A DNA stretch of 64,000 nt, taken from Eledone cirrhosa. Taxonomy: Eukaryota. The DNA lies in assembly GCA_964016885.1 (NCBI GenBank), contig OZ024741.1:358050001-358114000 (forward strand). The letters are read 5' to 3'. Shown here in pieces: positions 19,032 to 51,222 of this stretch. Within the stretch, counting starts at the first letter, position 1. Each line of letters starts with the position of its first letter. A model generated the notes under the pieces. The model was given only the letters and a program-made list of their open reading frames with translations, had not been told where the DNA came from and made no database searches. The position numbers and the translations under genes were made by a program.

Positions 19032-19642
19032 TTATATGGTAAATGAATAAGGATGGAATCTCGAAAACCAGTCATCAAAATGAACTTCAAATTGTATAGC
19101 CCTGTCTATGGCTTGTGTCATTGCCAGACCATCAGCTGAGGAATAAATATGTTCTTCAATCAAAGGAATGTTTTCTTGATCTGTTGTATCCAGATTGATA
19201 TTGTGAAGGTAGCAGACCAATTCTGTCATATGGTCAGGAATACTGAAGAGCTGTTGGCAGCTGTTTTTTTGTGACACATAGTTGGAATTGGTGTAGTTCA
19301 TGGCACATTCAATACAATTTGTCACTGTGCTGTTCATAACCTGAAGCAAAATAGATGGGTTAGATTTACATAATTCTGGGTAAATTTTTCTTTCCTTCCA
19401 AGCATCTAATTGCTTAGAAAAACCTTCAGAATGGATCACAAGGATGAAATTGACTGCTTTTTGAATCTCTGCTAAATTAGTCATCATTTTGTAATCCTCA
19501 TTCAGGTTTAAAACTTCACAGAAGCAGTGTTCATGTAGGTATAATATGAACGCATCACATGCCTGTTGATGTTGTTCATGGTCAAAAGTGTTTATGATGC
19601 ACAATTTTATTTTATCCTTTTCTTCTGGTTGTGGTTGGGAAT
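19032..19642 (-). CDS. IL-17 receptor-like gene, terminal exon with SEFIR domain and SEFEX-like extension
   Basis: Acceptor tttttcag|AT (phase 1) within ORF 19032..19673. KLCIINTFDHEQHQQACDAFILYLHEHCFCEV matches SEFIR box 1. FILVIHSEG, LFSIPDHMTELVCYLH, DGLAMTQAI and FEVHFDDWF parallel IL17RA cytoplasmic motifs. Confidence 0.85.
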
Positions 19643-19688
19643 CTGAAAAAGTATGGAATGAATACATTATCAATGTAGGAACATGGAA

Positions 19689-20365
19689 TCTATATACATA
19701 AATGGCAATTTCTGTCTGTTTGTGAACCTAAAACTAAAAAACTACCAAACCGATCTTGATGAAACTTGACATGTGTGTAGGGCTCATGCCCATTTGATTT
19801 CTGTCGTATATTTCAAACCCCCCGGTGAAAATTTTTTCCCTTTGATTTATATGAAATTTAAACCATAGGTAAATGACAAGATATGATGCCTATTCACAAA
19901 ATTTCAGCAAATTTCAATAATAATAAGACACCCTAATGGAGGTTAAACCCCCTATCGTGAAAATGTTGGCCAATAAATGAAACAAGATTTCACAAACTCC
20001 TCCTATGGTTTTGGAGATAGACCCCCATAACCATATATATATTCTGAAACTACATTGCCCAGGGTACTTGGATAAGTATATTTAATTTTAATCAAAGAGT
20101 TCCCCAGGGGCACAAAACCCTCGCTGAAAATTTTTTCTCTTCGAATTATATGAAATTTAAACCATAGGTAAATGACAAGATATGATGCCTATTCCTAAAA
20201 GTTTTGAATTGAGATTTAAAAAAAAATTATTTACGAGAAACAAAATAAGAATAAGATTTAATAATATAATTTTGATTAGATATATTTCAAAAAATAATGT
20301 TTTCCAATTTTTCAGGCATTACATTTTACATTGAGTAATATTGAAATGCAGCGTTTTTATCCATA
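19689..20365 (+). mobile_element. Non-autonomous Helitron (sister of 56647-57721), 3' end not found
   Basis: A|TCTATATACATAAA start. 19991-20110 and 20200-20360 match the reverse complement of 57540-57665 and 56740-56895. Internal duplication of about 80 bp (~19825-19900 vs ~20125-20200). Confidence 0.85.
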
Positions 20366-20434
20366 AATTCATATATGCAGTTCACATTCTTAGTGCACTT
20401 ACTTTATAGTCATTATACATGTATTTTGAATTAA

Positions 20435-23400
20435 TATATTACAGTTTACTGCTCACTATATTACAGCTTACAGTTGCTGTATATTACAGTGTATAGACAC
20501 TGTATATTAAGTTATTGTATATTACAGTTTATAGTTACTGTATATTACAGTTTACAGTTACTGTATATAACAGTGTATAGTTACTGTATATTACAGTGTA
20601 TAGTTACTGTATATTACAGTTTATAGTTACTGTATATTACAGTGTATAGTTACTGTATATTACAGTATATAGTTACTGTATATTACAGTGTACAGTTACT
20701 GTATATTACAGTGTACAGTTACTGTATATTACAGTGTATAGTTACTGTATATTACAGTGTATAGTTACAGTATATTACAGTGTATAGTTACTGTATATTA
20801 CAGTTTATAGTTACTGTATATTACAATGTACAGTTACTGTATATTACAGTGTATAGTTACTGTATATTACAGTGTATAGTTACTGTATATTACAGTGTAT
20901 AGTTACTGTATATTACAGTGTACAGTTACTGTATATTACAGTGTACAGTTACTGTATATTACAGTGTATAGTTACTGTATATTACAGTGTATAGTTACTG
21001 TATATTACAGTGTATAGTTACTGTATATTACAGTGTACAGCTACTGTATATTACAGTGTACAGTTACTGTATATTACAGTGTATAGTTACTGTATATTAC
21101 AGTGTATAGTTACTGTATATTACAGTGTATAGTTACTGTATATTACAGTGTATAGTTACTGTATATTACAGTGCACAGTTACTGTATATTACAGTTTACA
21201 GTTACTGTATATTACAGTGTATAGTTACTGTATATTACAGTTTACAGTTACTGTATATTACAGTGTATAGTTACTGTATATTACGGTGTATAGTTACTGT
21301 ATATTACAGTGTATAGTTACTGTATATTACAGTGTATAGTTACTGTATATTACAGTGTATAGTTACTGTATATTACAGTGTATAGTTACTGTATATTACA
21401 GTATAGAGTTACTGTATATTACAGTGTATAGTTACTGTATATTACAGTGTATAGTTACTGTATATTACAGTTTACAGTTACTGTATATTACAGTGTACAG
21501 TTACTGAATATTACAGTGTATAGTTACTGTATATTACAGTGTATAGTTACTGTATATTACAGTGTATAGTTACTGTATATTACAGTGTATAGTTACTGTA
21601 TATTACAGTGTATAGTTACTGTATATTACAGTGTATAGTTACTGTATATTACAGTGTATAGTTACTGTATATTACAGTGTACAGTTACTGAATATTACAG
21701 TGTATAGTTACTGTATATTACAGTGTATAGTTACTGTATATTACAGTGTATAGTTACGGTATATTACAGTTTATAGTTACTGTATATTACAGTGTACAGT
21801 TACTGAATATTACAGTGTATAGTTACTGTATATTACAGTGTATAGTTACTGTATATTACAGTTTACAGTTACTGTATATTACAGTGTACAGTTACTGAAT
21901 ATTACAGTGTATAGTTACTGTATATTGCAGTTTATAGTTACTGTATATTACAGTGTATAGTTACTGTATATTACAGTGTATAGTTACTGTATATTACAGT
22001 GTATAGTTACTGTATATTACAGTGTATAGTTACTGTATATTACAGTTTATAGTTACTGTATATTACAGTGTATAGTTACTGTATATTGCAGTTTATAGTT
22101 ACTGTATATTACAGTGTATAGTTACTGTATATTACAGTGTATAGTTACTGTATATTACAGTTTATAGTTACTGTATATTACAGTTTATAGTTACTGTATT
22201 TTACAGTGTATAGTTACTGTATATTACAGTTTATAGTTACTGTATATTACACTGTACAGTTACTGTATATTACAGTTTATAGTTACTGTATATTACAGTG
22301 TATAGTTACTGTATATTACAGTTTATAGTTACTGTATATTACAGTGTATAGTTACTGTATATTACAGTGTATAGTTACTGTATATTACAGTTTATAGTTA
22401 CTGTATATTACAGTGTATAGTTACTGTATATTACAGTTTATAGTTACTGTATATTACAGTGTATAGTTACTGTATATTATACTGTACAGTTACTGTATAT
22501 TACAGTTTATAGTTACTGTATATTACAGTGTATAGTTACTGTATATTACAGTGTATAGTTACTGTATATTACAGTTTATAGTTACTGTATATTACAGTGT
22601 ATAGTTACTGTATATTACAGTGTATAGTTACTGTATATTACAGTGTACAGTTACTGTATATTACACTGTATAGTTACTGTATATTACACTGTATAGTTAC
22701 TGTATATTACACTGTATAGTTACTGTATATTACAGTGTACAGTTACTGTATATTACAGTGTATAGTTACTCTATATTACAGTGTATAGTTACTGTATATT
22801 ACAGTGTACAGTTACTGTATATTACAGTGTACAGTTACTGTATATTACAGTGTTTAGTTACTGTATATTACAGTTTATAGTTACTGTATATTACAGTGTA
22901 CAGTTACTGTATATTACAGTGTATAGTTACTGTATATTACAGTGTATAGTTACTGTATATTACAGTGTATAGTTACTCTATATTACAGTGTATAGTTACT
23001 GTATATTACAGTGTATAGTTACTGTATATTACAGTGTACAGTTACTGTATATTACGGTGTATAGTTACTGTATATTACAGTGTATAGTTACTGTATATTA
23101 CAGTGTTTAGTTACTGTATATTACAGTTTATAGTTACTGTATATTACAGTGTACAGTTACTGTATATAACAGTGTATAGTTACTGTATATTACAGTGTAT
23201 AGTTACTGTATATTACAGTTTATAGTTACTGTATATTACAGTGTATAGTTACTGTATATTACAGTGTATAGTTACTGTATATTACAGTGTACAGTTACTG
23301 TATATTACGGTGTATAGTTACTGTATATTACAGTGTATAGTTACTGTATATTACAGTGTATAGTTACTGTATATTACAGTGTATAGTTACTGTATATTAC

Positions 23401-26400
23401 AGTTTATAGTTACTGTATATTACACTGTATAGTTACTGTATATTACAGTGTATAGTTACTGTATATTACAGTTTATAGTTACTGTGTATTACAGTTTATA
23501 GTTACTGTATATTACAGTGTATAGTTACTGTATATTACAGTGTATAGTTACTGTATATTACAGTGTATAGTTACTGTATATTACAGTTTATAGTTACTGT
23601 GTATTACAGTGTATAGTTACTGTATATTACAGTTTATAGTTACTGTGTATTACAGTTTATAGTTACTGTATATTACAGTGTATAGTTACTGTATATTACA
23701 GTTTATAGTTACTGTATATTACAGTGTACAGTTACTGTATATTACACTGTACAGTTACTGTATATTACAGTATATAGTTACTGTATATTACAGTGTATAG
23801 TTACTGTATATTACAGTGTACAGTTACTGTATATTACAGTGTATAGTTACTGTATATTACAGTGCACAGTTACTGTATATTACAGTTTACAGTTACTGTA
23901 TATTACAGTGTATAGTTACTGTATATTACAGTTTACAGTTACTATATATTACAGTGTATAGTTACTGTATATTACAGTGTATAGTTACTGTATATTACAG
24001 TGTATAGTTACTGTATATTACAGTTTATAGTTACTGTATATTACAGTGTATAGTTACTGTATATTACAGTGTATAGTTACTGTATATTACAGTGCACAGT
24101 TACTGTATATTACAGTTTACAGTTACTGTATATTACAGTGTATAGTTACTGTATATTACAGTTTACAGTTACTGTATATTACAGTGTATAGTTACTGTAT
24201 ATTACAGTGTATAGTTACTGTATATTACAGTTTACAGTTACTGTATATTACAGTGTACAGTTACTGTATATTACAGTTTACAGTTACTGTATATTACAGT
24301 ATATAGTTACTGTATATTACAGTTTATAGTTACTGTATATTACAGTGTACAGTTACTGTATGTTACAGTGTACAGTTACTGTATATTACAGTGTATAGTT
24401 ACTGTATATTACAGTGTACAGTTACTGTATATTACAGTATATAGTTACTGTATGTTACAGTGTACAGTTACTGTATATTACAGTGTATAGTTACTGTATA
24501 TTACAGTGTATAGTTACTGTATATTACAGTTTATAGTTACTGTATATTACAGTGTACAGTTACTGTATATTACAGTTTACAGTTACTGTATATTAAAGTT
24601 TATAGTTACTGTATATTACAGTGTATAGTTACTGTATATTACAGTGTATAGTTACTGTATATTACAGTTTATAGTTACTGTATATTACAGTGTACAGTTA
24701 CTGTATATTACAGTTTACAGTTACTGTATATTACAGTGTACAGTTACTGTATATTACAGTGTATAGTTACTGTATATTACAGGTATAGTTACTGTATATT
24801 ACAGTGTATAGTTACTGTATATTACAGTGTATAGTTACTGTATATTACAGTGTATAGTTACTGTATGTTACAGTGTACAGTTACTGTATATTACAGTGTA
24901 TAGTTACTGTATATTACAGTGTACAGTTACTGTATATTACAGTGTATAGTTACTCTATATTACAGTGTATAGTTACTGTATATTACACTGTATAGTTACT
25001 GTATATTACACTGTATAGTTACTGTATATTACAGTGTATAGTTACTGTATATTACAGTGTATAGTTACTGTATATTACAGCGTACAGTTCCTGTATATTA
25101 CAGTGTATAGTTACTGTATATTACAGTGTATAGTTACTGTATATTACAGTGTATAGTTACTGTATATTACAGTGTACAGTTACTGTATATTACAGTTTAT
25201 AGTTACTGTATATTACAGTGTATAGTTACTGTATATTACAGTGTATAGTTACTGTATATTACAGTTTATAGTTACTGTATATTACAGTGTATAGTTACTG
25301 TATATTACAGTGTATAGTTACTGTATATTACAGTTTATAGTTACTGTATATTACAGTGTATAGTTACTGTATATTACAGTTTATAGTTACTGTATATTAC
25401 AGTGTATAGTTACTGTATATTACAGTGTATAGTTACTGTATATTACAGTTTATAGTTACTGTGTATTACAGTTTATAGTTACTGTATATTACAGTGTATA
25501 GTTACTGTATATTACAGTGTATAGTTACTGTATATTACAGTGTATATTTACTGTATATTACAGTGTATAGTTACTGTATATTACAGTTTACAGTTACTGT
25601 ATATTACAGTTTATAGTTACTGTATATTACAGTGTATAGTTACTGTATATTACAGTGTATAGTTACTGTGTATTACAGTGTATAGTTACTGTATATTACA
25701 GTGTATAGTTACTGTATATTACAGTGTATAGTTATTGTATATTACAGTGTATAGTTACTGTATATTACAGTTTATAGTTACTGTATATTACAGTGTATAG
25801 TTACTGTATATTACAGTGTATAGTTACTGTATATTACAGTGTATAGTTACTGTATATTACAGTGTATAGTTACTGTATATTACAGTGTATAGTTACTGTA
25901 TATTACAGTGTATAGTTACTGTATATTACAGTGTATAGTTACTGTATATTACAGTGTATAGTTACTGTATATTACAGTGTATAGTTACTGTATATTACAG
26001 TGTATAGTTACTGTATATTACAGTGTATAGTTACTGTATATTACAGTGTATAGTTACTGTATATTACAGTGTATAGTTACTGTATATTACAGTGTACAGT
26101 TACTGTATATTACAGTGTACAGTTACTGTATATTACAGTGTATAGTTACTGTATATTACAGTGTATAGTTACAGTATATTACAGTGTACAGTTACTGTAT
26201 ATTACAGTGTATAGTTACTGTATATTACAGTGTATAGTTACTGTATATTACAGTGTACAGCTACTGTATATTACAGTGTACAGTTACTGTATATTACAGT
26301 GTATAGTTACTGTATATTACAGTGTATAGTTACTGTATATTACAGTGTATAGTTACTGTATATTACAGTGTACAGTTACTGTATATTACAGTGTATAGTT

Positions 26401-29400
26401 ACTGTATATTACAGTTTATAGTTACTGTATATTACAGTTTATAGTTACTGTATATTACAGTGTAAAGTTACTGTATATTACAGCGTATAGTTACTGTATA
26501 TTACGGTCTATAGTTACTGTATATTACAGTGTATAGTTACTGTATATTACAGTGTATAGTTACTGTATATTACAGTGTATAGTTACTGTATATTACAGTG
26601 TATAGTTACTGTATATTACAGTGTATAGTTACTGTATATTACAGTGTACAGTTACTGTATATTACACTGTACAGTTACTGTATATTACAGTATATAGTTA
26701 CTGTATATTACAGTGTATAGTTACTGTATATTACAGTGTACAGTTACTGTATATTACAGTGTATAGTTACTGTATATTACAGTGCACAGTTACTGTATAT
26801 TACAGTTTACAGTTACTGTATATTACAGTGTATAGTTACTGTATATTACAGTTTACAGTTACTGTATATTACAGTGTATAGTTACTGTATATTACAGTTT
26901 ACAGTTACTGTATATTACAGTGTATAGTTACTGTATATTACAGTGTATAGTTACTGTATATTACAGTTTACAGTTACTGTATATTACAGTGTACAGTTAC
27001 TGTATATTACAGTTTACAGTTACTGTATATTACAGTATATAGTTACTGTATATTACAGTTTATAGTTACTCTATATTACAGTGTACAGTTACTGTATGTT
27101 ACAGTGTACAGTTACTGTATATTACAGTGTATAGTTACTGTATATTACAGTGTACAGTTACTGTATATTACAGTATATAGTTACTGTATGTTACAGTGTA
27201 CAGTTACTGTATATTACAGTGTATAGTTACTGTATATTACAGTGTATAGTTACTGTATATTACAGTTTATAGTTACTGTATATTACAGTGTACAGTTACT
27301 GTATATTACAGTTTACAGTTACTGTATATTAAAGTTTATAGTTACTGTATATTACAGTGTATAGTTACTGTATATTACAGTGTATAGTTACTGTATATTA
27401 CAGTTTACAGTTACTGTATATTACAGTGTACAGTTACTGTATATTACAGTGTATAGTTACTGTATATTACAGGTATAGTTACTGTATATTACAGTGTATA
27501 GTTACTGTATATTACAGTGTATAGTTACTGTATATTACAGTGTATAGTTACTGTATGTTACAGTGTACAGTTACTGTATATTACAGTGTATAGTTACTGT
27601 ATATTACAGTGTACAGTTACTGTATATTACAGTTTATAGTTACTGTATATTACAGTGTATAGTTACTGTATATTACAGTTTATAGTTACTGTATATTACA
27701 CTGTATAGTTACTGTATATTACAGTTTATAGTTACTGTATATTACAGTGTATAGTTACTGTATATTACAGCGTACAGTTCCTGTATATTACAGTGTATAG
27801 TTACTGTATATTACAGTGTATAGTTACTGTATATTACAGTGTATAGTTACTGTATATTACAGTGTACAGTTACTGTATATTACAGTTTATAGTTACTGTA
27901 TATTACAGTGTATAGTTACTGTATATTACAGTGTATAGTTACTGTATATTACAGTTTATAGTTACTGTATATTACAGTGTATAGTTACTGTATATTACAG
28001 TGTATAGTTACTGTATATTACAGTTTATAGTTACTGTATATTACAGTGTATAGTTACTGTATATTACAGTTTGTAGTTATTGTATATTACAGTGTATAGT
28101 TACTGTATATTACAGTGTATAGTTACTGTATATTACAGTTTATAGTTACTGTGTATTACAGTTTATAGTTACTGTATATTACAGTGTATAGTTACTGTAT
28201 ATTACAGTGTATAGTTACTGTATATTACAGTGTATAGTTACTGTATATTACAGTGTATAGTTACTGTATATTACAGTGTATAGTTACTGTATATTACAGT
28301 GTATAGTTACTGTATATTACAGTGTATAGTTACTGTATATTACAGTGTATAGTTACTGTATATTACAGTGTATAGTTACTGTATATTACAGTGTATAGTT
28401 ACTGTATATTACAGTGTACAGTTACTGTATATTACAGTGTACAGTTACTGTATATTACAGTGTATAGTTACTGTATATTACAGTGTATAGTTACAGTATA
28501 TTACAGTGTATAGTTACTGTATATTACAGTGTACAGTTACTGTATATTACAGTGTATAGTTACTGTATATTACAGTATATAGTTACTGTATATTACAGTG
28601 TACAGCTACTGTATATTACAGTGTACAGTTACTGTATATTACAGTGTATAGTTACTGTATATTACAGTGTATAGTTACTGTATATTACAGTGTATAGTTA
28701 CTGTATATTACAGTGTACAGTTACTGTATATTACAGTGTATAGTTACTGTATATTACAGTTTATAGTTACTGTATATTACAGTTTATAGTTACTGTATAT
28801 TACAGTATAAAGTTACTGTATATTACAGCGTATAGTTACTGTATATTACGGTCTATAGTTACTGTATATTACAGTGTATAGTTACTGTATATTACAGTGT
28901 ATAGTTACTGTATATTACAGTGTATAGTTACTGTATATTACAGTATATAGTTACTGTATATTACAGTGTATAGTTACTGTATATTACAGTGTACAGTTAC
29001 TGTATATTACACTGTACAGTTACTGTATATTACAGTATATAGTTACTGTATATTACAGTGTATAGTTACTGTATATTACAGTGTACAGTTACTGTATATT
29101 ACAGTGTATAGTTACTGTATATTACAGTGCACAGTTACTGTATATTACAGTTTACAGTTACTGTATATTACAGTGTATAGTTACTGTATATTACAGTTTA
29201 CAGTTACTGTATATTACAGTGTATAGTTACTGTATATTACAGTGTATAGTTACTGTATATTACAGTGTATAGTTACTGTATATTACAGTTTATAGTTACT
29301 GTATATTACAGTGTATAGTTACTGTATATTACAGTGTATAGTTACTGTATATTACAGTGCACAGTTACTGTATATTACAGTTTACAGTTACTGTATATTA

Positions 29401-32400
29401 CAGTGTATAGTTACTGTATATTACAGTTTACAGTTACTGTATATTACAGTGTATAGTTACTGTATATTATAGTGTATAGTTACTGTATATTACAGTTTAC
29501 AGTTACTGTATATTACAGTGTACAGTTACTGTATATTACAGTTTACAGTTACTGTATATTACAGTATATAGTTACTGTATATTACAGTTTATAGTTACTG
29601 TATATTACAGTGTACAGTTACTGTATGTTACAGTGTACAGTTACTGTATATTACAGTGTATAGTTACTGTATATTACAGTGTACAGTTACTGTATATTAC
29701 AGTATATAGTTACTGTATGTTACAGTGTACAGTTACTGTATATTACAGTGTATAGTTACTGTATATTACAGTGTATAGTTACTGTATATTACAGTTTATA
29801 GTTACTGTATATTACAGTGTACAGTTACTGTATATTACAGTTTACAGTTACTGTATATTAAAGTTTATAGTTACTGTATATTACAGTGTATAGTTACTGT
29901 ATATTACAGTGTATAGTTACTGTATATTACAGTTTACAGTTACTGTATATTACAGTGTACAGTTACTGTATATTACAGTGTATAGTTACTGTATATTACA
30001 GGTATAGTTACTGTATATTACAGTGTATAGTTACTGTATATTACAGTGTATAGTTACTGTATATTACAGTGTATAGTTACTGTATGTTACAGTGTACAGT
30101 TACTGTATATTACAGTGTATAGTTACTGTATATTACAGTGTACAGTTACTGTATATTACAGTGTATAGTTACTCTATATTACAGTGTATAGTTACTGTAT
30201 ATTACACTGTATAGTTACTGTATATTACACTGTATAGTTACTGTATATTACAGTTTATAGTTACTGTATATTACAGTGTATACTTACTGTATATTACAGC
30301 GTACAGTTCCTGTATATTACAGTGTATAGTTACTGTATATTACAGTGTATAGTTACTGTATATTACAGTGTATAGTTACTGTATATTACAGTGTACAGTT
30401 ACTGTATATTACAGTTTATAGTTACTGTATATTACAGTGTATAGTTACTGTATATTACAGTGTATAGTTACTGTATATTACAGTTTATAGTTACTGTATA
30501 TTACAGTGTATAGTTACTGTATATTACAGTGTATAGTTACTGTATATTACAGTTTATAGTTACTGTATATTACAGTGTATAGTTACTGTATATTACAGTT
30601 TATAGTTACTGTATATTACAGTGTATAGTTACTGTATATTACAGTGTATAGTTACTGTATATTACAGTTTATAGTTACTGTGTATTACAGTTTATAGTTA
30701 CTGTATATTACAGTGTATAGTTACTGTATATTACAGTGTATAGTTACTGTATATTACAGTGTATAGTTACTGTATATTACAGTTTACAGTTACTGTATAT
30801 TACAGTTTACAGTTACTGTATATTACAGTTTATAGTTACTGTATATTACAGTGTATAGTTACTGTATATTACAGTGTATAGTTACTGTGTATTACAGTGT
30901 ATAGTTACTGTATATTACAGTGTATAGTTACTGTATATTACAGTGTATAGTTATTGTATATTACAGTGTATAGTTACTGTATATTACAGTTTATAGTTAC
31001 TGTATATTACAGTGTATAGTTACTGTATATTACAGTGTATAGTTACTGTATATTACAGTGTATAGTTACTGTATATTACAGTGTATAGTTACTCTATATT
31101 ACAGTGTATAGTTACTGTATATTACAGTGTATAGTTACTGTATATTACAGTGTATAGTTACTGTATATTACAGTGTATAGTTACTGTATATTACAGTGTA
31201 TAGTTACTGTATATTACAGTGTATAGTTACTGTATATTACAGTGTATAGTTACTGTATATTACAGTATATAGTTACTGTATATTACAGTGTACAGTTACT
31301 GTATATTACAGTGTATAGTTACTGTATATTACAGTGTATAGTTACTGTATATTACAGTGTATAGTTACAGTATATTACAGTGTATAGTTACTGTATATTA
31401 CAGTGTACAGTTACTGTATATTACAGTGTATAGTTACTGTATATTACAGTATATAGTTACTGTATATTACAGTGTACAGATACTGTATATTACAGTGTAC
31501 AGTTACTGTATATTACAGTGTATAGTTACTGTATATTACAGTGTATAGTTACTGTATATTACAGTGTATAGTTACTGTATATTACAGTGTACAGTTACTG
31601 TATATTACAGTGTATAGTTACTGTATATTACAGTTTATAGTTACTGTACATTACAGTTTATAGTTACTGTATATTACAGTGTAAAGTTACTGTATATTAC
31701 AGCGTATAGTTACTGTATATTACGGTCTATAGTTACTGTATATTACAGTGTATAGTTACTGTATATTACAGTGTATAGTTACTGTATATTACAGTGTATA
31801 GTTACTGTATATTACAGTGTATAGTTACTGTATATTACAGTATATAGTTACTGTATATTACAGTGTATAGTTACTGTATATTACAGTGTATAGTTACTGT
31901 ATATTACAGTTTACATTTACTGTATATTACAGTGTACAGTTACTGAATATTACAGTGTATAGTTACTGTATATTACAGTGTATAGTTACTCTATATTACA
32001 GTGTATAGTTACTGTATATTACAGTGTATAGTTACTGTATATTACAGTGTATAGTTACTGTATATTACAGTTTATAGTTACTGTATATTACAGTGTTTAG
32101 TTACTGTATATTACAGTATACAGTTACTGTATATTACAGTGTATAGTTACTGTATATTACAGTTTATAGTTACTGTACATTACAGTGTATAGTTACTGTA
32201 TATTACAGTGTATAGTTACTGTATATTACAGTGTACAGTTACTGTATATTACAGTGTATAGTTACTGTATATTACAGTGTATAGTTACTGTATATTACAG
32301 TTTACAGTTACTGTATATTACAGTGCATAGTTACTGTATATTACAGTCTACAGCTACTGTATATTACAGTGTACAGTTACTGTATATTACAGTGTATAGT

Positions 32401-33890
32401 TACTGTATATTACAGTGTATAGTTACTGTATATTACAGTGTATAGTTACTGTATATTACAGCATATAGTTACTGTATATTAAAGTGTATAGTTACTGTAT
32501 ATTACAGTGTATAGTTACTGTATATTACAGTGTACAGTTACTGTATATTACAGTGTACAGTTACTGTATATTACAGTGTATAGTTACTGTATATTACAGT
32601 GCACAGTTACTGTATATTACAGTGTATAGTTACTGTATATTACAGTGTATAGTTACTGTATATTAGTGCACAGTTACTGTATATTACAGTGTATAGTTAC
32701 TGTATATTACACTGTATAGTTACTGTATATTACAGTGTACGGTTACTGTATATTACAGTGTATAGTTACTGTATATTACAGTGTATAGTTACTGTTTATT
32801 ACAGTGTATAGTTACTGTATATTACAGTGTATAGTTACTGTATATTACAGTGTATAGTTACTGTATATTACAGTTTATAGTTACTGTATATTACAGTGTA
32901 CAGTTACTGTATATTACAGTTTATAGTTACTGTATATTACAGTGTATAGTTACTGTATATTACACTGTACAGTTACTGTATATTACAGTTTATAGTTACT
33001 GTATATTACAGTGTACAGTTACTGTATATTACAGTGTATAGTTACTGTATATTACAGTGTATAGTTACTGTATATTACAGTGCACAGTTACTGTATATTA
33101 CAGTGTATAGTTACTGTATATTACACTGTATAGTTACTGTATATTACAGTGTACGGTTACTGTATATTACAGTGTATAGTTACTGTATATTACAGTTTAT
33201 AGTTACTGTATATTACAGTGTACAGTTACTGTATATTACAGTGTATAGTTACTGTATATTACAGTGTACAGTTACTGTATATTACAGTTTATAGTTACTG
33301 TATATTACAGTGTACAGTTACTGTATATTACAGTTTATAGTTACTGTATATTACAGTGTATAGTTACAGTATATTACAGTTTATAGTTACAGTATATTAC
33401 AGTGTATAGTTACTGTATATTACAGTGTATAGTTACTGTATATTACAGTGTATAGTTACTGTATATTACAGTGTATAGTTACTGTATATTACAGTGTATA
33501 GTTACTGTATATTACAGTGTATAGTTACTGTATATTACAGTGTACAGTTACTGTATATTACAGTGTACAGTTACTGTATATTACAGTGTATAGTTACTGT
33601 ATATTACAGTGTACAGTTACTGTATATTACAGTGTATAGTTACTGTATATTACAGTGTATAGTTACTGTATATTACAGTGTATAGTTACTGTATATTACA
33701 GTGTATAGTTACTGTATATTACAGTTTATAGTTACTGTATATTACAGTATACAGTTACTCTATATTACAGTGTATAGTTACTCTATATTACAGTCTACAG
33801 TTACTCTATATTACAGTGTATAGTTACTCTATATAAAGTTTATATGTATTGCATATTATAGTTTACATCTAGTTTACAGTTACAGTGTAT
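20435..33890 (+). repeat. 23-bp satellite array, ~13.4 kb (~580 copies)
   Basis: Consensus TATATTACAGTGTATAGTTACTG with recurrent variants (tttata, tgtaca, tttaca, tgcaca); degenerate at both edges. Confidence 0.99.
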
Positions 33891-34669
33891 GATAGTGTGC
33901 AGTTATCATATATTACACATTACAGCTGTTTATACATAATTTACACTAATGACCTAGAGGTAAGCATTAGCTTCATTACCATTATTATTTATTTATTTTA
34001 TTTCTTCTATTGTTATTTTATTTCATTAGATTTTATAAAAACTGGTTTCAAATTGAAAAACCATTTGTTTGAAATTGTTTATATTTACATCTAAACCTTC
34101 GATGATCATTATATGTAAGAAAATTGTCTATTCTTTTAAATACCCACTTAATAAGAAAATTAGTCATATTACTTAATCCCTCCAACTTTTTGATTATCTA
34201 AAAAATTTATTGAAAATCACAAGTAATGTATTTCATTAAAAATAAGATTGTGAAATGATATCTTAATAGACTCACCATTTTTTAACACAGAATCTTGTTT
34301 GGAATGAAACATATGCCGGTATTTTACTGAAATTGAGGTAAAAAGAAAATGATGGAAAGTGGATGTTAAATGATGAGGATGTGACCTTTTAACTGTTGTT
34401 AATAGAAATGGCAAGCACATAACAGAAATTGGTGTGAAATTGTTCTCTAATTTGATAACTTTGTGTTAGAAATTAAAAATATTCTCCAAGTCCAAAGATT
34501 AAGAGATGGAAATAATGAAATTGTGGAATTTGAATGCAACAACTGTCATTGTGGTCATAGAAACCTTAGGGGAAGTCCATTAAAAAAAAATCTAACAATA
34601 AAATTGAAGGTTTCTCTGAAAAATCTGACCTCAGTGAATTCTGCCACTACTAACAATGATTTCTAATTT

Positions 34670-34865: not shown

Positions 34866-34873
34866 GCTACTAT

Positions 34874-35559: not shown

Positions 35560-35703
35560 TGATGAACCATAATGATATGCTGATAAGTATTGCAAATATC
35601 AATGACACTATGAGTGTCAGTGGTAAGTTAAATCTGACTGTCTCTTTTGGTTGGCTTTTGGGACAGTGGTCACTTTGGAGAGAAAATGTGGTAACGTTTG
35701 TCT
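35560..35703 (-). CDS. IL-17 receptor-like gene, transmembrane exon
   Basis: tttttgtag|AG...ATCA|gtaagt, phase 1 to 1. Encodes (E)TNVTTFSLQSDHCPKSQPKETVRFNLPLTLIVSLIFAILISISLWFI, with a 22-residue hydrophobic helix at the end. Confidence 0.8.
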
Positions 35704-36590: not shown

Positions 36591-36621
36591 CCAAAAGAAA
36601 CCAGCCTTGTTCATTTTCGTT
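36591..36621 (-). CDS. IL-17 receptor-like gene, 31-bp micro-exon
   Basis: atttcacag|AAC...TTGG|gtgagg, phase 0 to 1. Encodes NENEQGWFLL and restores frame exactly between the stalk exon and the TM exon. Confidence 0.55.
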
Positions 36622-37830: not shown

Positions 37831-37887
37831 GAGGGTTAGAAATTTTAATTAAATATTTATTGCAAGTTTTATTAACTTGTTACTTAC

Positions 37888-37961
37888 TTCTGTAACATAT
37901 CCACAGACGTGCCAGACTGATTCTTGTTCTTGTTTTATCGAAGGTAAAGGTGGTGTTGTAA
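37888..37961 (-). CDS. IL-17 receptor-like gene, stalk exon
   Basis: ttttcaag|TT...GAA|gtaagt, phase 1 to 0. Encodes (I)TTPPLPSIKQEQESVWHVCGYVTE. The AAG acceptor is weaker. Confidence 0.55.
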
Positions 37962-38145: not shown

Positions 38146-38224
38146 TTGTAATATTGAAGGCGTTTGAGTATGTTCTCTTGCATATTTTGCAATCTTTAAT
38201 GTCTCCATTCTTTAGAGGAACTAC
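38146..38224 (-). CDS. IL-17 receptor-like gene, 79-bp exon
   Basis: ttccag|GTA...ACAA|gtaagt, phase 0 to 1. Encodes VVPLKNGDIKDCKICKRTYSNAFNIT (V-x-P...C-x-x-C-x-R, as at the end of IL-17R D2). Confidence 0.75.
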
Positions 38225-40202: not shown

Positions 40203-40689
40203 TTTAGGATATTAGTATCAGTGTATATATATTATCAAGAATGACAATAAATGCAGGTGAGTGTTGTGACATGGTTTTACTTCACAGAAGTCAAATAAAT
40301 TAATATAAATAATTGTTACCACATGTTGATGGTCAGTTGGTCACAACTCCCAGACTGGAGTGTGTGGAGAAGAACAGAAATCTTCTCTTGGTAAGGTTCA
40401 AGTGTTTCTTTAGGCTGCCGTCGCAGGAAGTGAGACAGGAGTCATCTCTTGACAAGGTCTGAGGTGTTCTTGTTGCGGGCGAAGGAAGTGAGAGAGAATT
40501 GCATCACGTTCTCAAATATATAGTCCCCAGGGGGACGCAACTCCATTTAGTACGTGGATCTGCCACTGGGAGTCGCGACCGTGACAAAGGGACACAACTC
40601 CTATACGTATCTGCCACTGGGAGTCGCGACCGTCACAAAGGGACGTAACTCCTATACGTTCTGTGTTAGAGCCGTAAGGGGCCGCTACA
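40203..40689 (-). repeat. 3' LTR
   Basis: Direct repeat of 45411-45867; on the minus strand TGTAGCG...CCTAAA; preceded by the PPT; contains a 51-bp tandem duplication. Confidence 0.95.
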
Positions 40690-40880
40690 TTACCCTCCTC
40701 CAAATGCTAGGCGAAAAGCCCGAAGGTAACTGTAGCGAACCCACAAGCTTGGGCTCCCAGCACAGGCATGAAATATTAACGCAAAGGTACATGTATGAAT
40801 CAGGCATGAAATGGTAACGAAAAGGTTCATAGTAATACAATAAAGAGAAAAACAACAAAAAAAAGGCTCCAGTGGCCAGT

Positions 40881-43800
40881 TCACATGATAACAGTTTGGC
40901 AGAGTTTTTTGGGCCAGTGGACTCTTCGACTGGAACGGGTCGTGGTCTTGTATGTAGGTGAAGGTGGGGCAGAAGGAGCAGGTGTATGCACAAGAGAGAA
41001 AGATTGGGGTATTTGTGGCTCGGGTGTATGAGCGTCATTGTATGCCCTTTTTAGTCTATCCACCGAAATTGTCTCTCTGGACCTCTTAATGTCTACTGTG
41101 AAATGTTTGTCAATACGTGCTAACACACGGTAGGGTCCAGAGTACGGTTGTGTGAGGGGTGGAGTAACCGCATCATTTCTGACGAATACATGTGTCCACG
41201 AGGCAATATCCCTCGGGACTGCAGCTTTAATAGTTTGTTTCCTAGTATTCATGGGCGGTAAGTCCTGAAAATAGGAGCGCAAACGAGATACGTAGGAAAC
41301 AGGGTCCTGAAAAGCAAGATCAACAGGGGCAAGCATTTGCCCAGGCAACGCTAGAGGAGCACCATACAGTAATTCGACCTGGGAGAACCCAAGGTCCTCC
41401 TTTATTGATGACCGAATTCCTAACAACACAATAGGAAGGTACTCGCTCCAACGTTGAGAGTCTGGATAGGCGCGAAGAGCGGCCTTTAATTGGCGGTGGA
41501 ATCGTTCCACCATTCCGTTTGAAGCAGGATGTTAGGCTGAGGTCCGAATCCGTTGAGCGCCAATGATCTTTGTGAGCTCAGAGAAAAGATGAGACTCAAA
41601 TTGTCTACCACGGTCTGTGGTGACTGTAGTTGGTACCCCAAAGCGCGTAATCCACCCTGATACCAGGGCACGCGCTACAGTCTCAGCAGTTATATCTTGT
41701 AAGGGCATGGCTGCAGGCCATCGCGAAAAACGATCGATACAGGTCAAGAGGTACGAATATCCACTGCTGAATGGCCAAGGTCCAACGATATCAATGTGGA
41801 TGTGTTGAAACCGAGCATCTGGAGTACTGAAAGTACCAAGTGGAGTCCGGATGTGTCTGTGGATTTTAGATCTCTGACACTGTGTGCAGGAACGGCACCA
41901 GACAGTAATTTCTCGCCTCATATTGGGCCAGAAAAATCTAGCCGTTATAAGCTTTACTGTGGCAGAAATTCCTGGGTGAGAAATGCTGTGCAAAGCAAGG
42001 AACACAATTCGACGGTGAGTCTCAGGAACAAATGGTCGTGGTGAATCCGTAGATACATCACATAGAATCTGCCTGTCGGTGGTCGACAAGGGCAGATATT
42101 TGAAGATGCAAGTCGCAAATTCGGCAGAAAGAGTATCCAACGATTGGAGTGCAGGTTGGTCTGCAGCTAAACGACCTAAGTCGATCTCCTGGGATGACGA
42201 GATGGAGCTGATTGGCAAACGTGACAATGCGTCTGCAGCTATGTTATGCGAGCCAGCAATGTGCTGGATATCATTTGTAAATTGCGAAACGTAATCCAGG
42301 TGCCTTGTCTCTCTGGGCGAATATCTGTCGGCTTTAGCCCTCAAAGCGAAGGTCAGAGGTTTGTGGTCGGTTAAAACAGTAAAATTTCTCTCCTCAAGAA
42401 TGTGAGAGAAATGTTTCACCGACAGATATATGGCTAATAATTCCCGCCCAAACGTGCTGTAACGCGTTTCTGCTGGTTTCAGCTTCCCCGAGAAAAATGC
42501 CAAAGGTTGTTGATTTCCAGCGTTGAACTGCTGTAAAACTTCTCCCACAGTGGTATCAGATGCATCAACACAAAGCGAAAGCTTGGCCTCTGGTACCGGG
42601 TAGGCTAGCAAAGATGAACTAGCGAGTGATGTCTTGGCAGTCTGGAAGTCTTTAAGCTGTCCTTGTGTCAAGGAAATATCCTCATTCTTCTTACGAAGAT
42701 TTTTCAAAATGTCAGTAAGGGAAGATAGCAAATTAGCACAATGAGGAACGAAACGCCTATAGAAATTGATTATGCCTAAGAAGTGACGCAACTAGTGAAG
42801 TGTAGTAGGCGGAGGTAAATCCTATATGGCTTGAACTCGCTGAGGGAGCGGCCTAATACCTTCGGCGTCGATGAGGTGACCTAAAAAATATAGCGAAGTG
42901 GAACCGAAAACACACTTTGCGGGATTCACACGAACGCGGTAATCCTGAAGTCGCCGAAATAAGAGATGCATGTGGCGCATATGCCCTTCCAGAGAGGAAC
43001 TAGCGACGAGAATATCGTCTATGTAAGCATAAACGAAGTCCAGACCACGAGTGACTTCGTCTATGAACCGCTGAAAAGTGCTAGCGGCGTTCCTGAGTCC
43101 GAAAGGCATGGTAAAAAATTCGAAGGATCCGAAAGGAGTTGTAATCGCCGCTTTCGGAATATCCTCCTTCCTGACCGGAATTTAGTGGTAGGCTCGCACT
43201 AAATCTAGTTTTGAGAAAATCTTACACCCCTGCAATGAAGATGCGAAATCCTGGAGATGGGGAATGGGATACCTATCCGGGACGGTCATAGCATTTAACC
43301 TCCTGTAATCCCCAGTGGGTCTCCAATCGCCGGAAGTCTTGGGCACCATGTGTAACGGTGAAGCCCAAGGGATCGTAGATGGGTGACTAATGCCCAGCTG
43401 CAGCATATGGTCGAACTCGGACCGTGCTGCCTTTAAATTGTTCGCCGGTAAGCGGCGTGGACGCGAAAACACTGGAGCACCGGTGGTGGAAATGAAATGT
43501 TCAGTTGAGTGTGTTGGCTCAGTGACTCGACAATTTCCATCGGTGAGCTCCGGGAAAGAACCTAGCAACGAATGGTAGGCGTCTCCAGCGGCAGCGATGA
43601 AGAATATGGAGCTGACTGTTGGACCATTGGCTTTTCGGCCACGAATTGAAAAACCGGTGATGTCATCCACCAGGCGTTGGCTACGGACGTCCACAGTCAA
43701 AGAGAATTTATGGAGGAAATCCGTTCCTAAGATAGAGTATGGCAAATCGGCAACCGTAAAAATCCACTTAAAATCCCTACGAAGATTTAGGAATTTGAGA

Positions 43801-44180
43801 GGAAGCGAGATTTGCCCGTACATCTTTATAGACGAGTGATTAACTGCCTGCAGAGTAACGGATGACTCTACGGGGGTATCTTTCAGGCAATGGACCGGCC
43901 AAATACTACAGGAGGCTCCTGTATCCACGAGGAAACCTCTTCCCGATATAAGGTCCTTAATGAAGAAATGGCGGTTTGGTGGCTTTATGTTGAGGTCAAC
44001 TGCCCCATCAGCGGACCTCTTTGGCGTTTCCCGCCTTATGAAACGAGCAAGGTTGCACGCAGTGGTTCGCGCTCTCAACGAATCGCTCATGGTACCAGCA
44101 TAAAGATGAAGCTGGTGACTTGGAGTGGCGTCTAAAAGATTGAAATCTCCCGCGGCTGCGGAGGCGCGAACGGGCACCAC
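40881..44180 (-). pseudogene. pol: Gypsy pol (PR-RT-RH-IN) with in-frame premature stops
   Basis: ORFs 43182..44180, 42822..43109, 41532..42791 and 40881..41513 are in one frame, separated by stop codons. Confidence 0.93.
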
Positions 44181-44793
44181 ACCAGGCCTTCATCTTCTGG
44201 AGCTCCAGGGTGAGTTCTGCATCGCCATAATAGCTGAGCTCTCTATAGGAGCTGCCGCGCAGATGGCATGACCAGGTGTGGCCTGAGCTGGTTGGGAATC
44301 AGCGGCAAGGGCTTCGCTGCCTCCAGCATCCGTGACTTCGAAAACTTTGTCCGCGGAGGCGGCAAGCTGATCCACCGTGCAAGTATCCCTAATGGGGGCC
44401 AAAATTGCCTGTACTTTGGTCGGTAGGCGCGAGAAGAACAACTGCCTCAGCATGGCAGTTTCCGCTACCAACCCCTCCGTTAGGTCCTTCATTCTCCTTA
44501 GGAGGTTCGATGGGGTGCCATCACCGATATGCTCCAGATGGACCAGAGCCATAAACCTTTTTTCTGCGGACTGTGCAGTCCGGCTGAGTATTTCACCTTT
44601 CAGAGACTTGTACGTCGCGCCGGTGGGTGTCTCTAACACCAGGTCCTTAATCGCTGGGATAAGTGCCGGCGGAATTGCACTAAGGGCCAGAGGACGTTGT
44701 TGTGCCTCGTCAATTCTGTTCGCCTCGAAAAATGCTTCGAGTTGGGCGAACCATAACCTTACGTCGCCCGACGGTAGAACAGAATGAGATGCC
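44008..44793 (-). pseudogene. gag: Gypsy gag, frameshifted before the CHCC knuckle
   Basis: VRLWFAQLEAFF...YKSLKGEIL...IGDGTPSNLLRRM...LFFSRLP in ORF 44190..44876; zinc knuckle in the other frame (44008..44193). Confidence 0.88.
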
Positions 44794-45410
44794 ATTGGTA
44801 TACCGTAGGTAATCTGCCAAAAAAAAATCGTCTCCGTTTGGAAAAATGTCTCCAACACAACAGAAAAAGAAAACAAAATCGCTTATTTTTCTCTGCCAAA
44901 CAACTGGACAGGAAAAAGAATGTATTCGAGACAATATGCAAAGGAGCGACTAACCGAGCGATGTCATTAATAAGGTATAGGCAGGGAATTTAAAACTAAA
45001 ACCAACATGGTGGACTATTTCGCGCCAAAAATACTATTGAAGGAGAAGAGGAGAAGAAAGCCGCCATCTTGTCATCCTCAAAAATGTTAGCCAGAGAAAA
45101 GAAGAAAAGAAGAAAAGAAGAAAAGAAGAAAAGAAGAAAAGAAGAAAAGAAGAAAAGAAGAAAAAAAAAAATTCATACAATTGCTGTTTGTTTGTGTGTA
45201 AATACTTTGGATGCTCGTTTTGCACATATGAAGAGTTTGATGTTAAGTGTTACAGAGAAATATGTTTAGATCGGTCAATACAGCCATATCAGAATCAAGT
45301 GTGTTGTTCTGTATTAAATGTTTGTTTCTTTCTCTTTTTTTTTTATATACACATGGTACTATTTCCCATTCTTTAAAAAAAAACAAAACAAAAAAACGTC
45401 AGGTCACCAA

Positions 45411-45867
45411 TTTAGGATATTAGTATCAGTGTATATATATTATCAAGAATGACAATAAATGCAGGTGAGTGTTGTGACATGGTTTTACTTCACAGAAGTC
45501 AAATAAATTAATATAAATAATTGTTACCACATGTTGATGGTCAGTTGGTCACAACTCCCAGACTGGAGTGTGTGGAGAAGAACAGAAATCTTCACTTGGT
45601 AAGGTTCAAGTGTTTCTTTAGGCTGCCGGCGCAGGAAGTGAGACAGGAGTCATCTCTTGACAAGGTCTGAGGTGTTGCGGGCGAAGGAAATGAGAGAGAA
45701 TTGCCTCACGTTCTCAAATATATAGTCCCCAGGGGGATGCAATTCCATTTAGTACATGGATCTGCCACTGGGAGTCGCGACCGTGACAAAGGGACGCAAC
45801 TCCTATACGTATCTGCCACTGGGAGTCGCGACCGTCACAAAGGGACGTAACTCCTATACGCGCTACA
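45411..45867 (-). repeat. 5' LTR
   Basis: Direct repeat of 40203-40689; followed on the minus strand by T-TGGTGACC (tRNA-Trp-like PBS). Confidence 0.95.
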
Positions 45868-46826: not shown

Positions 46827-46874
46827 CAGAGCATGGTATTTCGCAGGTTTTACGTTGGTAAAGGTGTAAGTAGT
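46827..46874 (-). CDS. IL-17 receptor-like gene, 48-bp exon
   Basis: tttccacag|ACT...CTG|gtaagt, phase 0 to 0. Encodes TTYTFTNVKPAKYHAL, a typical FnIII E-F strand pattern (F-x-N-V-x-P-x-x-Y). Confidence 0.75.
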
Positions 46875-46904
46875 CTGTGGAAAGTACATATGTATTATTA
46901 TTAG

Positions 46905-47092: not shown

Positions 47093-47229
47093 AGTCTAGA
47101 CTTTTTCACATTCAAGTTAAGGCAATTGCCGATCATAGTTATATATATATATATATATATATATATACCCATCCACTTCTGTCCACTCCACCCTTACACT
47201 GTAAACAAAATATATCCAGCCCACACCAA

Positions 47230-47497: not shown

Positions 47498-47509
47498 TAT
47501 ATATATGTG

Positions 47510-47541
<32 letters not shown>

Positions 47542-48000
47542 AGGGATAACAAGTTATCGTTATAGGTAATCCAGTTAGAGGTTGTGAATACTCCGTATTG
47601 TGGATAGTTTTAGCGTACGGCGTTGTTTGACTCAATAAGAGGTTTCCTTAGGTAGCGAATTTATGAGTTCTCAGGAATTCCTATGTAAGTTAATCTTGGA
47701 GTGTGAAAGAATGAAGAATAACATGGTCAACAGTACAAGAAGGGTTTTATTTACAGTATTAACAATTGTTTGATTGATTAAGTTATCTTAAAATTGTTAA
47801 TCACTTGGGAGTTGTGTCACTCAATTTTAAATACGATGTATGCTTAACCAAATCATCAGATAACTGGATAAAATTATACATAGCGTTTACAAATTCAAAT
47901 TACAACATCAGTAATAAATAAAGAAAAAGAAATAGAGGAAAAAGAAAAAGATAGAGAGAAAAAAGAGAAAGAAAGAAAGAAAGAAAGAAAAAGAAAGAAA

Positions 48001-48733: not shown

Positions 48734-49600
48734 TCAAGTTGGTTTAAAATTATCGAATTTATTTGCTGCTTTATGTATACATAAAATTGACCGTTCAATT
48801 TTGCTGTTAAGCAGCATTTTGTCATATTTTAAAATATGGAATAATTCCATATTACAAAGCCTACAGTGGGACATACGAATTTTGTAGGCCATTGCCCCTG
48901 ACAATTTAGACCAGCTAATCCTGTATTCTTGGTTTGTATCTTTAAGCTGCCAGATTTTATTGGCGAGCGTTGTTGTATTAATTAATTTACGGTTCTTTAT
49001 AGAGTGTCTGTGGACGTACCGTCGTTTTTTGAACTCCCCCGCCGTAGAACCTATGTAGTGCCATGCTAAGTTGTCTGAATTTATAGTACATACGTACACT
49101 ATATTTGATTCAAGGCATCTAGTAAGTGACAGTTACATTTTGAGGCCTTCCTATGTGCCGATTCAGCGATGCGGTTTTGTATGTTCTTATGTATGGGCTG
49201 AGATTTGGGTTTGTTGATGTATTGTGGTGATGTGTTCTGACGTGTGTGTGGTTGTGATGTAGTTATGTGTATGTGTTTTGTATTTTGTGTTATGGTGTTT
49301 GTTATTAGAGATTCTTTTATAGTTAATTTTCTGTATGTGTGATTATATGTTGGTTGCAGTAGAGTAAGATAGTTTGATAGTATTTCTATTAAAGATTTTA
49401 TGGTATTTGTGAAGTTTAGTGAAGTGCTTGTCAATTAATTTAAAGAATATAGAAGGTAGTTTGGTTTTTATAGAGGAGTTAAATATTGGATTGAACCATA
49501 AGTATTTTCTATCTCTGGATCTTCTATAGTTCCTAGGGGTCCTTATATTAGTATTCGGTTCAATTATTTCTGGTGCTCGTTGCCTATTTCTATGTTTAGT
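48734..49600 (-). mobile_element. Penelope-like element 3' part (linker plus GIY-YIG endonuclease), frameshifted
   Basis: WFNPIFNSSIKTK...IDKHF...HKIFNRNTIKLSYS, then YVCTI...YIGSTAGEFKKR...H...CRLCNME...LLNSKIE...CIH. Confidence 0.85.
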
Positions 49601-50735
49601 CCTATATATATATATAGTCCTATATATATAGTTAACAAAGGGGGTTAAAGTTCCACACAAATCGAAGATAGAAAGTAAAAATGGGAAAGCACAGAAATAT
49701 ATTTAAAGATTATTTTTTTCTTTAATTCATCAAAACAAATATTTTCTATATCTGTGACACCAAATGGATTTAATTTCTATCAAATTTTACTGGTTATGTC
49801 AATCTTATATCAAATAATATTTAATCAATATGAAAAATTCTGTTATTGTATTTTGCAAGTTGTTAAACATATGGGTATTTTCTCTCAGTTTCATCTTATA
49901 TATATTTTTTATGTAAATAGGTGGAGGTGGGTAGGCGTCTTTTATATAACAAAAGAGAATAAATAAGAAAAACAATTGATTAACAAATATAAACCATACA
50001 TAAACATGTAATTGTTTCCCATTAGATATTAAATAATGGTCTAATGGGAACAACAAAATTACACAATTCTATAAGCAAACTTCTGTATGTAAAACCACGC
50101 ATACGATAAAAGAAATATTACCACTTTTCCAAAACAGCTCACTACGAAAGCATTAAGTTAATAATAATATCATAAAACCGTAATTCAAGAAACCATAATT
50201 TATATTCTTAAAATCTACATTATTTTGTAAAAATCTAATTAGTATGTAATAATCATCTAAAAAACGAAAAAAAAAAAAAGAAATTTAAAGCTAACTACCT
50301 TTTAATGATTTTGATGTGACTGCTTATTGTAGGAAAGCATTTTGATATTTGGTTGTAACATGGAATTCTGAAGTTTCAACTGAACCTCTAGATGGCATCC
50401 GCCATTTGTGATCTCAAAGGCGTTTTTATTTTGTTTAGGTAGGAGAATGTAGATTCGTAGCAATAAATGGTTGAAAAACAAGAGAGCATTTTTCGTGCAT
50501 GTTGCTGAAGATATGGGTATTCTATTCAAAAGACCACACAAAATGGCATAGAAGGCCGCATGCGTCCTTAAGACCGCAGGTTCCCCATCTCTTGACAAGA
50601 CGATATACATTTCAGCCTAGTTAATCTGGTGGTAAGATCTGTGTCAACATGGAAATGATTTCACAAAAGTTTTCAGGAACGAAAAAGAACACCAAAAACA
50701 AAACAAAATTACGTTGTAATCATCAACATTAAATC

Positions 50736-50768
<33 letters not shown>

Positions 50769-51064
50769 GACGCTAATTCAAATATGTTCACGGCTTGAAT
50801 GTCATTGATTATCGGTCTGCTCATTCAGAGTTTATTAGGAGTAAAACAATTACCACGACTATAAGGATCATGCTGCTTCTGAAGATGATAATCATCATCA
50901 CCAGCATGACCATTTTTTATGTGACAACTTTGTTAATTCGCCACATATATACATAAGAGTATCCCCCAGTCATGTTTAGATGGCGAGCCTTTCAATCCAA
51001 CTTCGATTCTCAATCTAAGTAGACAGTACTATCTTATCATACCAGGTCGCCTTGATATACTTAC

Positions 51065-51222
51065 TTTGTTAGTCGTATCTAATATCTTGTAACTTTTTAG
51101 ATACGGAGCCAAAGAAACGATATAACTGCTGATGTTCCATTGATCTGGTGCGTGTGTAAACTTCAAGTGGACGGTTGCCTGGACAGGATCCACCCGGACG
51201 GCGATACACGGTATCCAAGTCC
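51065..51222 (-). CDS. IL-17 receptor-like gene, ectodomain exon (start of second FnIII-like domain)
   Basis: Acceptor cttttcag|GG, donor AAA|gtaagt, phase 1 to 0. Encodes TWIPCIAVRVDPVQATVHLKFTHAPDQWNISSYIVSLAPYLKSYKILDTTNK; the W-x-P...V-x-F-x-H-A-P pattern resembles the IL17RD/IL17RA D2 domain. Confidence 0.8.

Follow-up and report, generated by a model that had tools for sequence, protein, structure and literature searches.

In the human interleukin-17 (IL-17) receptor complexes described in PMC9477748, the first fibronectin type III domain (FnIII, FN3) supplies two of the three ligand sites and the tip-to-tip contact between receptors. On the cytoplasmic side, the repeats by which IL-17RA anchors ACT1 begin near residue 617, deletion of residues 611-866 strongly lowers signaling, and the short-tailed IL-17RB stabilizes IL-17RA with no ACT1 contact of its own (PMC12828022). 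Degenerate SEFIR and FN3 domains are reported to be common in IL-17 receptors (PMC11087794). Molluscan IL-17 receptors are known: those of the mussel (Mytilus), IL17R-A to F, form six isoform groups, and 31 IL-17 genes of Octopus bimaculoides are cited in the same source (PMC8353272). Here, we describe an IL-17 receptor-like gene on the minus strand of a 64,000-nucleotide stretch (the window) of the 3.0-Gb genome of Eledone cirrhosa (contig OZ024741.1; C2:358050001-358114000). To the known molluscan receptors it adds a name for a group of orthologs, a corrected exon model, the loss of the tail, and a possible reduction of the ectodomain. No description of cephalopod IL-17 receptors, of single-fibronectin invertebrate IL-17 receptors, or of the ortholog accessions was found in the literature, subscription journals lying outside the search. 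In Dataset S1 of PMC11087794, "octopus" occurs twice, both times for Torso (squid and cuttlefish names not searched; 30 of 94 IL-17R rows examined).

Assignment to the IL-17 receptor family

The encoded protein almost certainly belongs to the IL-17 receptor family. A profile of three orthologs recovered 54 proteins at an E value of 0.001 or better, the named relatives being molluscan "SEFIR domain-containing" or IL-17 receptor-like proteins; Pfam detected SEFIR in 18 of 20 relatives scanned and Ig_ILCR1 in most. Searched against the PDB, the family profile matched the intracellular regions of IL-17RA and IL-17RB (9OT1, E 1e-45; 4NUX, 6e-26; 3VBC, 9e-13) and, at E about 1e-3, IL-17RA ectodomain structures. 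A predicted model of the last coding exon of 611 nt (19032..19642, pLDDT 86.5) superposed best on the SEFIR domain of IL-17RA (4NUX, residues 376-591; Z 19.8, rmsd 2.5 Å over 177 residues), followed by ACT1 (Z 12.3) and TIR domains (Z 9.4 or less), and Foldseek returned E values of 4e-8 to 9e-8 for the same model. In an atlas look-up, the O. sinensis ortholog fell with SEFIR clusters at 0.93. A receptor of the TLR or IL-1R (TIR) type was considered and rejected, given the best TIR score of 9.4 against 19.8 for the IL-17RA SEFIR and an ectodomain matching Ig_ILCR1/FN3. The proposal of a divergent IL-17R paralog, made in a preliminary description from the sequence alone, is thus borne out by the best structural match and by the profile matches to IL-17RA and IL-17RB.

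The other parts of the proposed architecture, that is, FnIII, stalk, transmembrane helix, and cytoplasmic region, were recovered as well, through Ig_ILCR1 in the orthologs, a helix, and the predicted SEFIR fold. Ig_ILCR1 exceeded its cut-off of 27 bits in the orthologs from O. vulgaris, Argonauta, and O. bimaculoides (P0001, P0002, and P0057; 29.9, 33.6, and 35.4 bits among the orthologs), and a model of the O. vulgaris protein gave FN3 structural matches plus one long helix at the transmembrane position. In the window, the best 19-residue hydropathy value of the 144-nt exon is 2.9. The ectodomain carries four N-glycosylation sequons, kept at the aligned ortholog positions, and basic residues follow the helix; from the sequons and these basic residues, a location at the cell surface is suggested.

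Several points weigh against this assignment. Both the SEFIR and the FnIII exons of the window stay below Pfam cut-offs: the 611-nt exon alone had no Pfam match (SEFIR PF08357) at the curated threshold, and even the Argonauta ortholog reached only 17.5 bits for PF08357 against a cut-off of 23. The preliminary description had looked to 19032-19642 for a SEFIR match by profile or by structure, and the Pfam match did not materialize while the structural one did. Searching the PDB with the same exon by phmmer gave no match, and a genome-wide SEFIR search listed four other loci and not this one. Moreover, the alignment behind the fold prediction consisted of relatives that bear SEFIR, which makes the predicted fold partly dependent on the homology search.

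Compared with human IL-17RA (4NUX, 9OT1), the protein has the predicted common SEFIR fold and the RA-type helical extension at 18% identity; residues of IL-17RA past about 591 have no equivalent here, and its first FnIII was not found here. In the IL-17 receptors of bivalves and gastropods (Mytilus IL17R-A to F; Haliotis XP_067684366, "interleukin-17 receptor D-like"; Mytilus XP_071176103), Ig_ILCR1, the transmembrane helix, and SEFIR follow one another as they do here, at approximately 20-25% identity; full-length members, of 600-900 residues, also possess a signal peptide, the first FnIII, and an extended tail. With Caenorhabditis elegans ILCR-1 (PF23608 Ig_ILCR1, PF25519 ILCR1_N), the Ig_ILCR1 domain family is held in common.

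Orthologs and exon structure

Octopod orthologs are present in O. sinensis (LOC115217083, XP_029642535.1; P0003), O. vulgaris (CAI9730328.1; P0001), O. bimaculoides (LOC106867782, XP_052827614.1; P0057, with a further record, P0058), and Argonauta hians (GAB1601287.1; P0002). These four proteins form one clade with the Eledone gene (support 100/100) and have the same order of parts, with an overall identity of 53-59% where measured (O. sinensis and Argonauta). They are already in databases, annotated as uncharacterized; none is named as an IL-17 receptor, and the UniRef label reads "ILCR1 Ig-like domain-containing". The expectation that annotation could miss or fragment such a gene agrees with these unnamed entries and with an older O. 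bimaculoides annotation split into pieces of 111 and 171 residues.

Judged by comparison with these proteins, the locus is a real octopod gene, intact and with six or more exons. The preliminary description had joined seven GT-AG exons into one open frame of about 380 residues. In a minus-strand scan for AG/GT ends with the same sizes and phases, the exons of 158, 48, 79, 144, and 611 nt were retained with their phases and aligned with the orthologs; those of 74 and 31 nt were dropped, and a 51-nt exon that had been overlooked was added. The resulting six-exon model keeps the frame open over 362 codons, has canonical splice sites, and is also open at its 5' end. Its identity is 210/353 to the O. 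sinensis and 190/360 to the Argonauta protein.

The most 5' exon found, of 158 nt (phase 1-0, 51065..51222), encodes the first half of the membrane-proximal FnIII (Ig_ILCR1). It was the single candidate of that size and phase, is matched by the O. vulgaris protein in tblastn (E 2e-10), has 27 of 52 residues identical to O. sinensis, and scores 25.9 bits for PF23608 against a cut-off of 27. FnIII strands continue in the 48-nt exon (phase 0-0, 46827..46874), the clear best candidate, with 10 of 16 residues identical to O. sinensis and 9 of 16 to Argonauta; a paralog at C2:202.0 Mb has a 48-nt exon at the same place. The FnIII domain ends, with a CxxC motif, in the 79-nt exon (phase 0-1, 38146..38224), again the clear best candidate. 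Its donor is conserved: the truncated O. bimaculoides model P0058 ends in residues almost identical to those obtained when the window sequence is read past this site. The 144-nt exon (phase 1-1, 35560..35703), also the clear best candidate, holds a short stalk and the transmembrane helix. The 51-nt exon (phase 1-1, 34276..34326) supplies the basic juxtamembrane segment, about 17 post-helix residues that are present in the orthologs; it has good splice sites and was the better of two candidates in its interval (5 of 17 residues identical to O. sinensis, 7 of 17 to Argonauta). The last coding exon, in 19032..19642, was the single candidate of its kind and encodes the divergent SEFIR with the IL-17RA-like helical extension, then a stop without a tail; it is 72% identical to the O. 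vulgaris and 62% to the Argonauta hians protein.

In the three orthologs that include a transmembrane segment, nothing separates the residues encoded by the 79-nt exon from those of the 144-nt exon. Direct joining of the two scored 1059/1066/943 in alignments with the O. vulgaris, O. sinensis, and Argonauta proteins, and addition of the 51-nt exon raised this by 47-54 points to 1106/1113/997, the best of all models. The O. bimaculoides protein P0057 joins the donor of the 79-nt exon to the 51-nt exon with the junction at the same residue; it lacks the in-frame transmembrane exon, owing either to an assembly gap or to skipping that would yield a membrane-free isoform.

That the seven exons first proposed represent the true transcript, with a species-specific stalk insert of 35 residues and no 51-nt exon, is very improbable. 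In its favor, the intron at 35704-38145 offers candidates of both sizes (8 for the 74-nt and 12 for the 31-nt exon), which combine into six open pairs, and the piece at 37888-37961, used by four of the six, has a good donor. However, the insert is absent from every ortholog compared, where the join of the 79- and 144-nt exons is gap-free, and all six pairs score 33-49 points below that join (1010-1014/1017-1021/897-910). Omission of the 51-nt exon would also leave the helix without a basic stop-transfer segment and open a 17-residue gap relative to the orthologs. Frame-keeping filler pairs were about as frequent in sense (32) as in antisense (37), and at least one occurred in 185 of 200 resampled introns, indicating that such pairs arise at chance level. 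The likeliest sites of the two exons, 37888..37961 (74 nt, minus strand) and 36591..36621 (31 nt, minus strand), have no ortholog counterpart and are probably intronic chance fillers. Another pair, 36214-36287 with 36005-36035, creates a stop and was rejected.

We infer splicing of the six exons from these comparisons. A point against it is that no junction had RNA support (four runs of one study, with no RNA holder listed). Contigs of X4 and X1 over 33900-47900 provide no evidence either way: none of the 15 joints listed (of 328) falls at an exon boundary, X4 covers intronic pieces as DNA would, and the contigs are swamped by repeats. The unlisted RNA holder and the repeat-laden introns would also suit a decaying, unexpressed copy, a scarcely credible explanation in the face of 362 open codons, canonical splice sites, a last exon still 72% identical to that of O. 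vulgaris, and the presence of only one such locus in the genome.

Tail, ectodomain, and proposed role

The frame stops approximately 5 residues past the SEFIR module, as it does in Argonauta and O. bimaculoides, and the O. vulgaris and O. sinensis proteins end 24 residues past it (19 extra). Tails of 5-24 residues in this clade compare with at least 37 in 92 of the 101 rows compared (near-copies included). Many of the long-tailed relatives end in a common SLGGxSV-type motif, and the Eledone protein has neither the tail nor the motif. Residue 591 is the last of IL-17RA in the structural match, which thus stops short of the ACT1-anchoring repeats, and the feature of an IL-17RA-type hub, a long post-SEFIR tail with ACT1-anchoring repeats, was not found in this gene.

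With moderate confidence, we propose that the gene encodes a single-pass IL-17R-family protein with a stop right after SEFIR and likely one FnIII, and that this protein is likely an accessory subunit, tuning or dampening the recruitment of ACT1. Displayed at the cell surface, it would associate by SEFIR contacts with a full-length IL-17 receptor and alter how ACT1 is recruited, itself leaving the ACT1 filament unanchored, and so would serve as a helper or a brake and not as the main signaling receptor. We argue for this role by analogy with the human short-tailed co-receptors, which stabilize IL-17RA without contacting ACT1. Candidate partners in the same genome are four other receptor loci, an ACT1-like SEFIR protein, and IL-17 ligands. 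The analogy is partial, because the short-tailed IL-17RB (3VBC) aligns over 123 residues only and the extension resembles that of IL-17RA. Binding of a ligand or partner and signaling through ACT1 are putative. For SEFIR dimers, AlphaFold is reported to have failed (PMC12828022).

The size of the ectodomain depends on the 5' end. It speaks against a complete model that neither a start codon nor a signal peptide turned up here, and that the four ortholog models, all of which begin 4-10 residues before the FnIII, have no leader. These starts fit a single-FnIII gene with an unannotated leader, without proving it. The missing 5' part may be just a leader and not a whole second FnIII domain, and a single FnIII behind an unfound leader exon appears the likely arrangement. 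In a splice-aware profile scan of the 413 kb upstream, no candidate for a first-FnIII exon stood out from the antisense background (best scores 8.6 versus 8.0 bits). An open-frame profile and a splice-aware profile, each over 213 kb, likewise stayed at background, as did similarity to the first nine residues of the orthologs and tblastn with paralog N termini. PF25519 (ILCR1_N), run over the genome, had no match near the gene, and a leader-peptide heuristic over 150 kb gave 11 sense versus 8 antisense candidates, a background level. As a control, the same splice-aware method revealed, no more than 4 kb from the C2:202.0 Mb paralog, two first-FnIII exons with scores of 18.5 and 8.7 bits. It recovered the first FnIII in one of three paralogs; the miss at C14 was expected, the orthologs of that gene being without this domain, and at the C2:202.39 Mb paralog the upstream search was also empty.

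These results bear on a competing view, to which we grant a real but minor chance, that the gene is an ordinary two-FnIII IL-17R paralog with usual IL-17 binding, whose signal-peptide and first-FnIII exons lie upstream and are too divergent or too distant to be seen. The FnIII starts at residue 184-221 in full-length bivalve and gastropod relatives and in the cephalopod protein P0086, about half of the IL-17 receptors carry a degenerate FN3 that escapes domain models (PMC11087794), and the equally empty search at C2:202.39 Mb would be in keeping with this view. Against it stand the 413 kb at background with a method that works at C2:202.0 Mb, the start of all four ortholog models just before the FnIII, and protein and representative searches that returned no longer ortholog.

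It is unlikely that the protein has no leader at all, as a type III membrane protein inserted by its single helix or, through skipping of the transmembrane exon, as a cytosolic FnIII-SEFIR protein that would act as a dominant-negative ACT1 sink. Three Octopus models do share a start methionine without a hydrophobic leader, and P0057 is without exactly the in-frame phase 1-1 transmembrane exon. However, incomplete annotation of the 5' end may account for the common start and an assembly gap for the absent exon, related paralogs have normal leaders, and the conserved ectodomain sequons suggest passage through the endoplasmic reticulum.

A single-FnIII form, if correct, does not conform to the double-FN3 ectodomain by which textbooks define the family. 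Since the first FnIII supplies ligand sites and the tip-to-tip contact in humans, a one-FnIII form would be expected to bind ligand weakly or differently. Receptors without this domain would be barred from the tip-to-tip assembly of all human IL-17 complexes and would need another ligand-binding mode or a ligand-free one.

Other IL-17 pathway genes and repeats

Four other IL-17R-like loci were found in the genome, at C14:40.04, C2:202.0, C2:202.4, and C4:312.0 Mb. The first belongs to a clade of putative single-FnIII receptors (C14:40.04-40.05 Mb; O. vulgaris CAI9729820.1, P0018; P0027; and a Sepia cluster, P0020/P0092; proteins including P0092-P0104). In P0018, P0027, and P0092, a hydrophobic N terminus is followed within 43-61 residues by an Ig_ILCR1 FnIII, and P0092 is found on 57 contigs no longer than 3.6 kb, which are probably transcripts. 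Single-FnIII IL-17 receptors thus appear to exist in cephalopods. The C14-type proteins fall in the same cephalopod-wide clade as the gene described here (98/97), but in them the signal peptide is visible, the Ser/Thr stalk is long, the SEFIR is Pfam-positive, and the tail comprises 93-117 residues.

In a tree of 24 rows based on the FnIII and SEFIR domains, the clade of the Eledone gene and its orthologs (100/100) lies inside that apparently cephalopod paralog group (98/97), in which P0027, P0086, and P0092 are unnamed records, cephalopod by clustering only. As a point against the single-FnIII reading, the two putative single-FnIII groups are apart in the best tree, and the two-FnIII protein P0086 joins the C14 group (94/88). 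Union of the two groups was not rejected (p-AU 0.129), and a single origin of the first-FnIII loss is neither shown nor rejected by the tree. A SEFIR-only tree (quick method, 59 rows; hand-listed cluster mates and rows of less than 150 residues dropped) left deep nodes open and was set aside.

C2:202.008-202.07 Mb (minus strand) and C2:202.39-202.416 Mb (plus strand) hold head-to-head IL-17R-like genes approximately 320 kb apart, whose SEFIR exons are near or under the Pfam cut-off. A strong SEFIR in a 601-residue open frame with a glutamine run is located at C4:312015448-312015900, and this locus is probably a conserved long-tailed receptor. An ACT1/CIKS-like SEFIR exon lies at C12:18468534-18468794 (E 5e-12 to TRAF3IP2). 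In line with the expanded octopus IL-17 ligand family invoked in the preliminary description, the genome contains 48 IL-17 matches, 46 of them in a 0.8-Mb cluster (C1:348.60-349.39 Mb), where many have identical scores indicative of recent tandem copies, and two at C26:7.17 Mb.

An intronless open reading frame of 390 codons at C6:84178542-84179714 (plus strand; L029:997-2166) has a signal-peptide-like start, two FnIII domains, and a Ser/Thr tail, with neither a transmembrane helix nor a SEFIR. Six contiguous pieces of it correspond, at 76-89%, to as many separate exons of the receptor gene at C2:202.0 Mb, which points to a retrocopy and makes it a candidate secreted decoy. Its frame is intact, with dN/dS about 1.1 and dS 0.19 over 225 codons, and selection is not demonstrated. 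It is tempting to speculate, although only tentatively and at less than even confidence, that coleoids rebuilt their IL-17R set alongside the ligand expansion, into two-FnIII receptors, single-FnIII receptors of which the gene described here is the most reduced, and an ectodomain-only secreted-decoy retrocopy. The small receptor set, comprising five loci, one adaptor, and one candidate decoy, makes ligand-receptor pairing testable.

The gene had been described as threaded through 32 kb of transposons, which holds for one Ty3/Gypsy element of about 5.7 kb, whereas 41% of the span is a single 23-bp tandem array. This satellite (20510..33862, approximately 581 copies, 94% matches, 13.4 kb) lies inside the last intron, which is the largest and consists mostly of this array, and shows a strong strand skew. 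The Ty3/Gypsy long terminal repeat (LTR) retrotransposon (40203..45860, minus strand) occupies the intron that separates the 48-nt exon from the 79-nt exon; its LTRs of 456 bp are 96.9% identical, and its coding region is broken into several frames. Further mobile-element pieces lie in flanks and introns at 11390-14083 (minus strand), 57006-57317 (minus strand), 52885-54698, and 48734-49702 (minus strand), among them a fragment without a Pfam match that we take to be Penelope/GIY-YIG-like. Helitron-like PIF1 helicase pieces are found both downstream and upstream, and a LINE endonuclease/reverse transcriptase remnant lies upstream.

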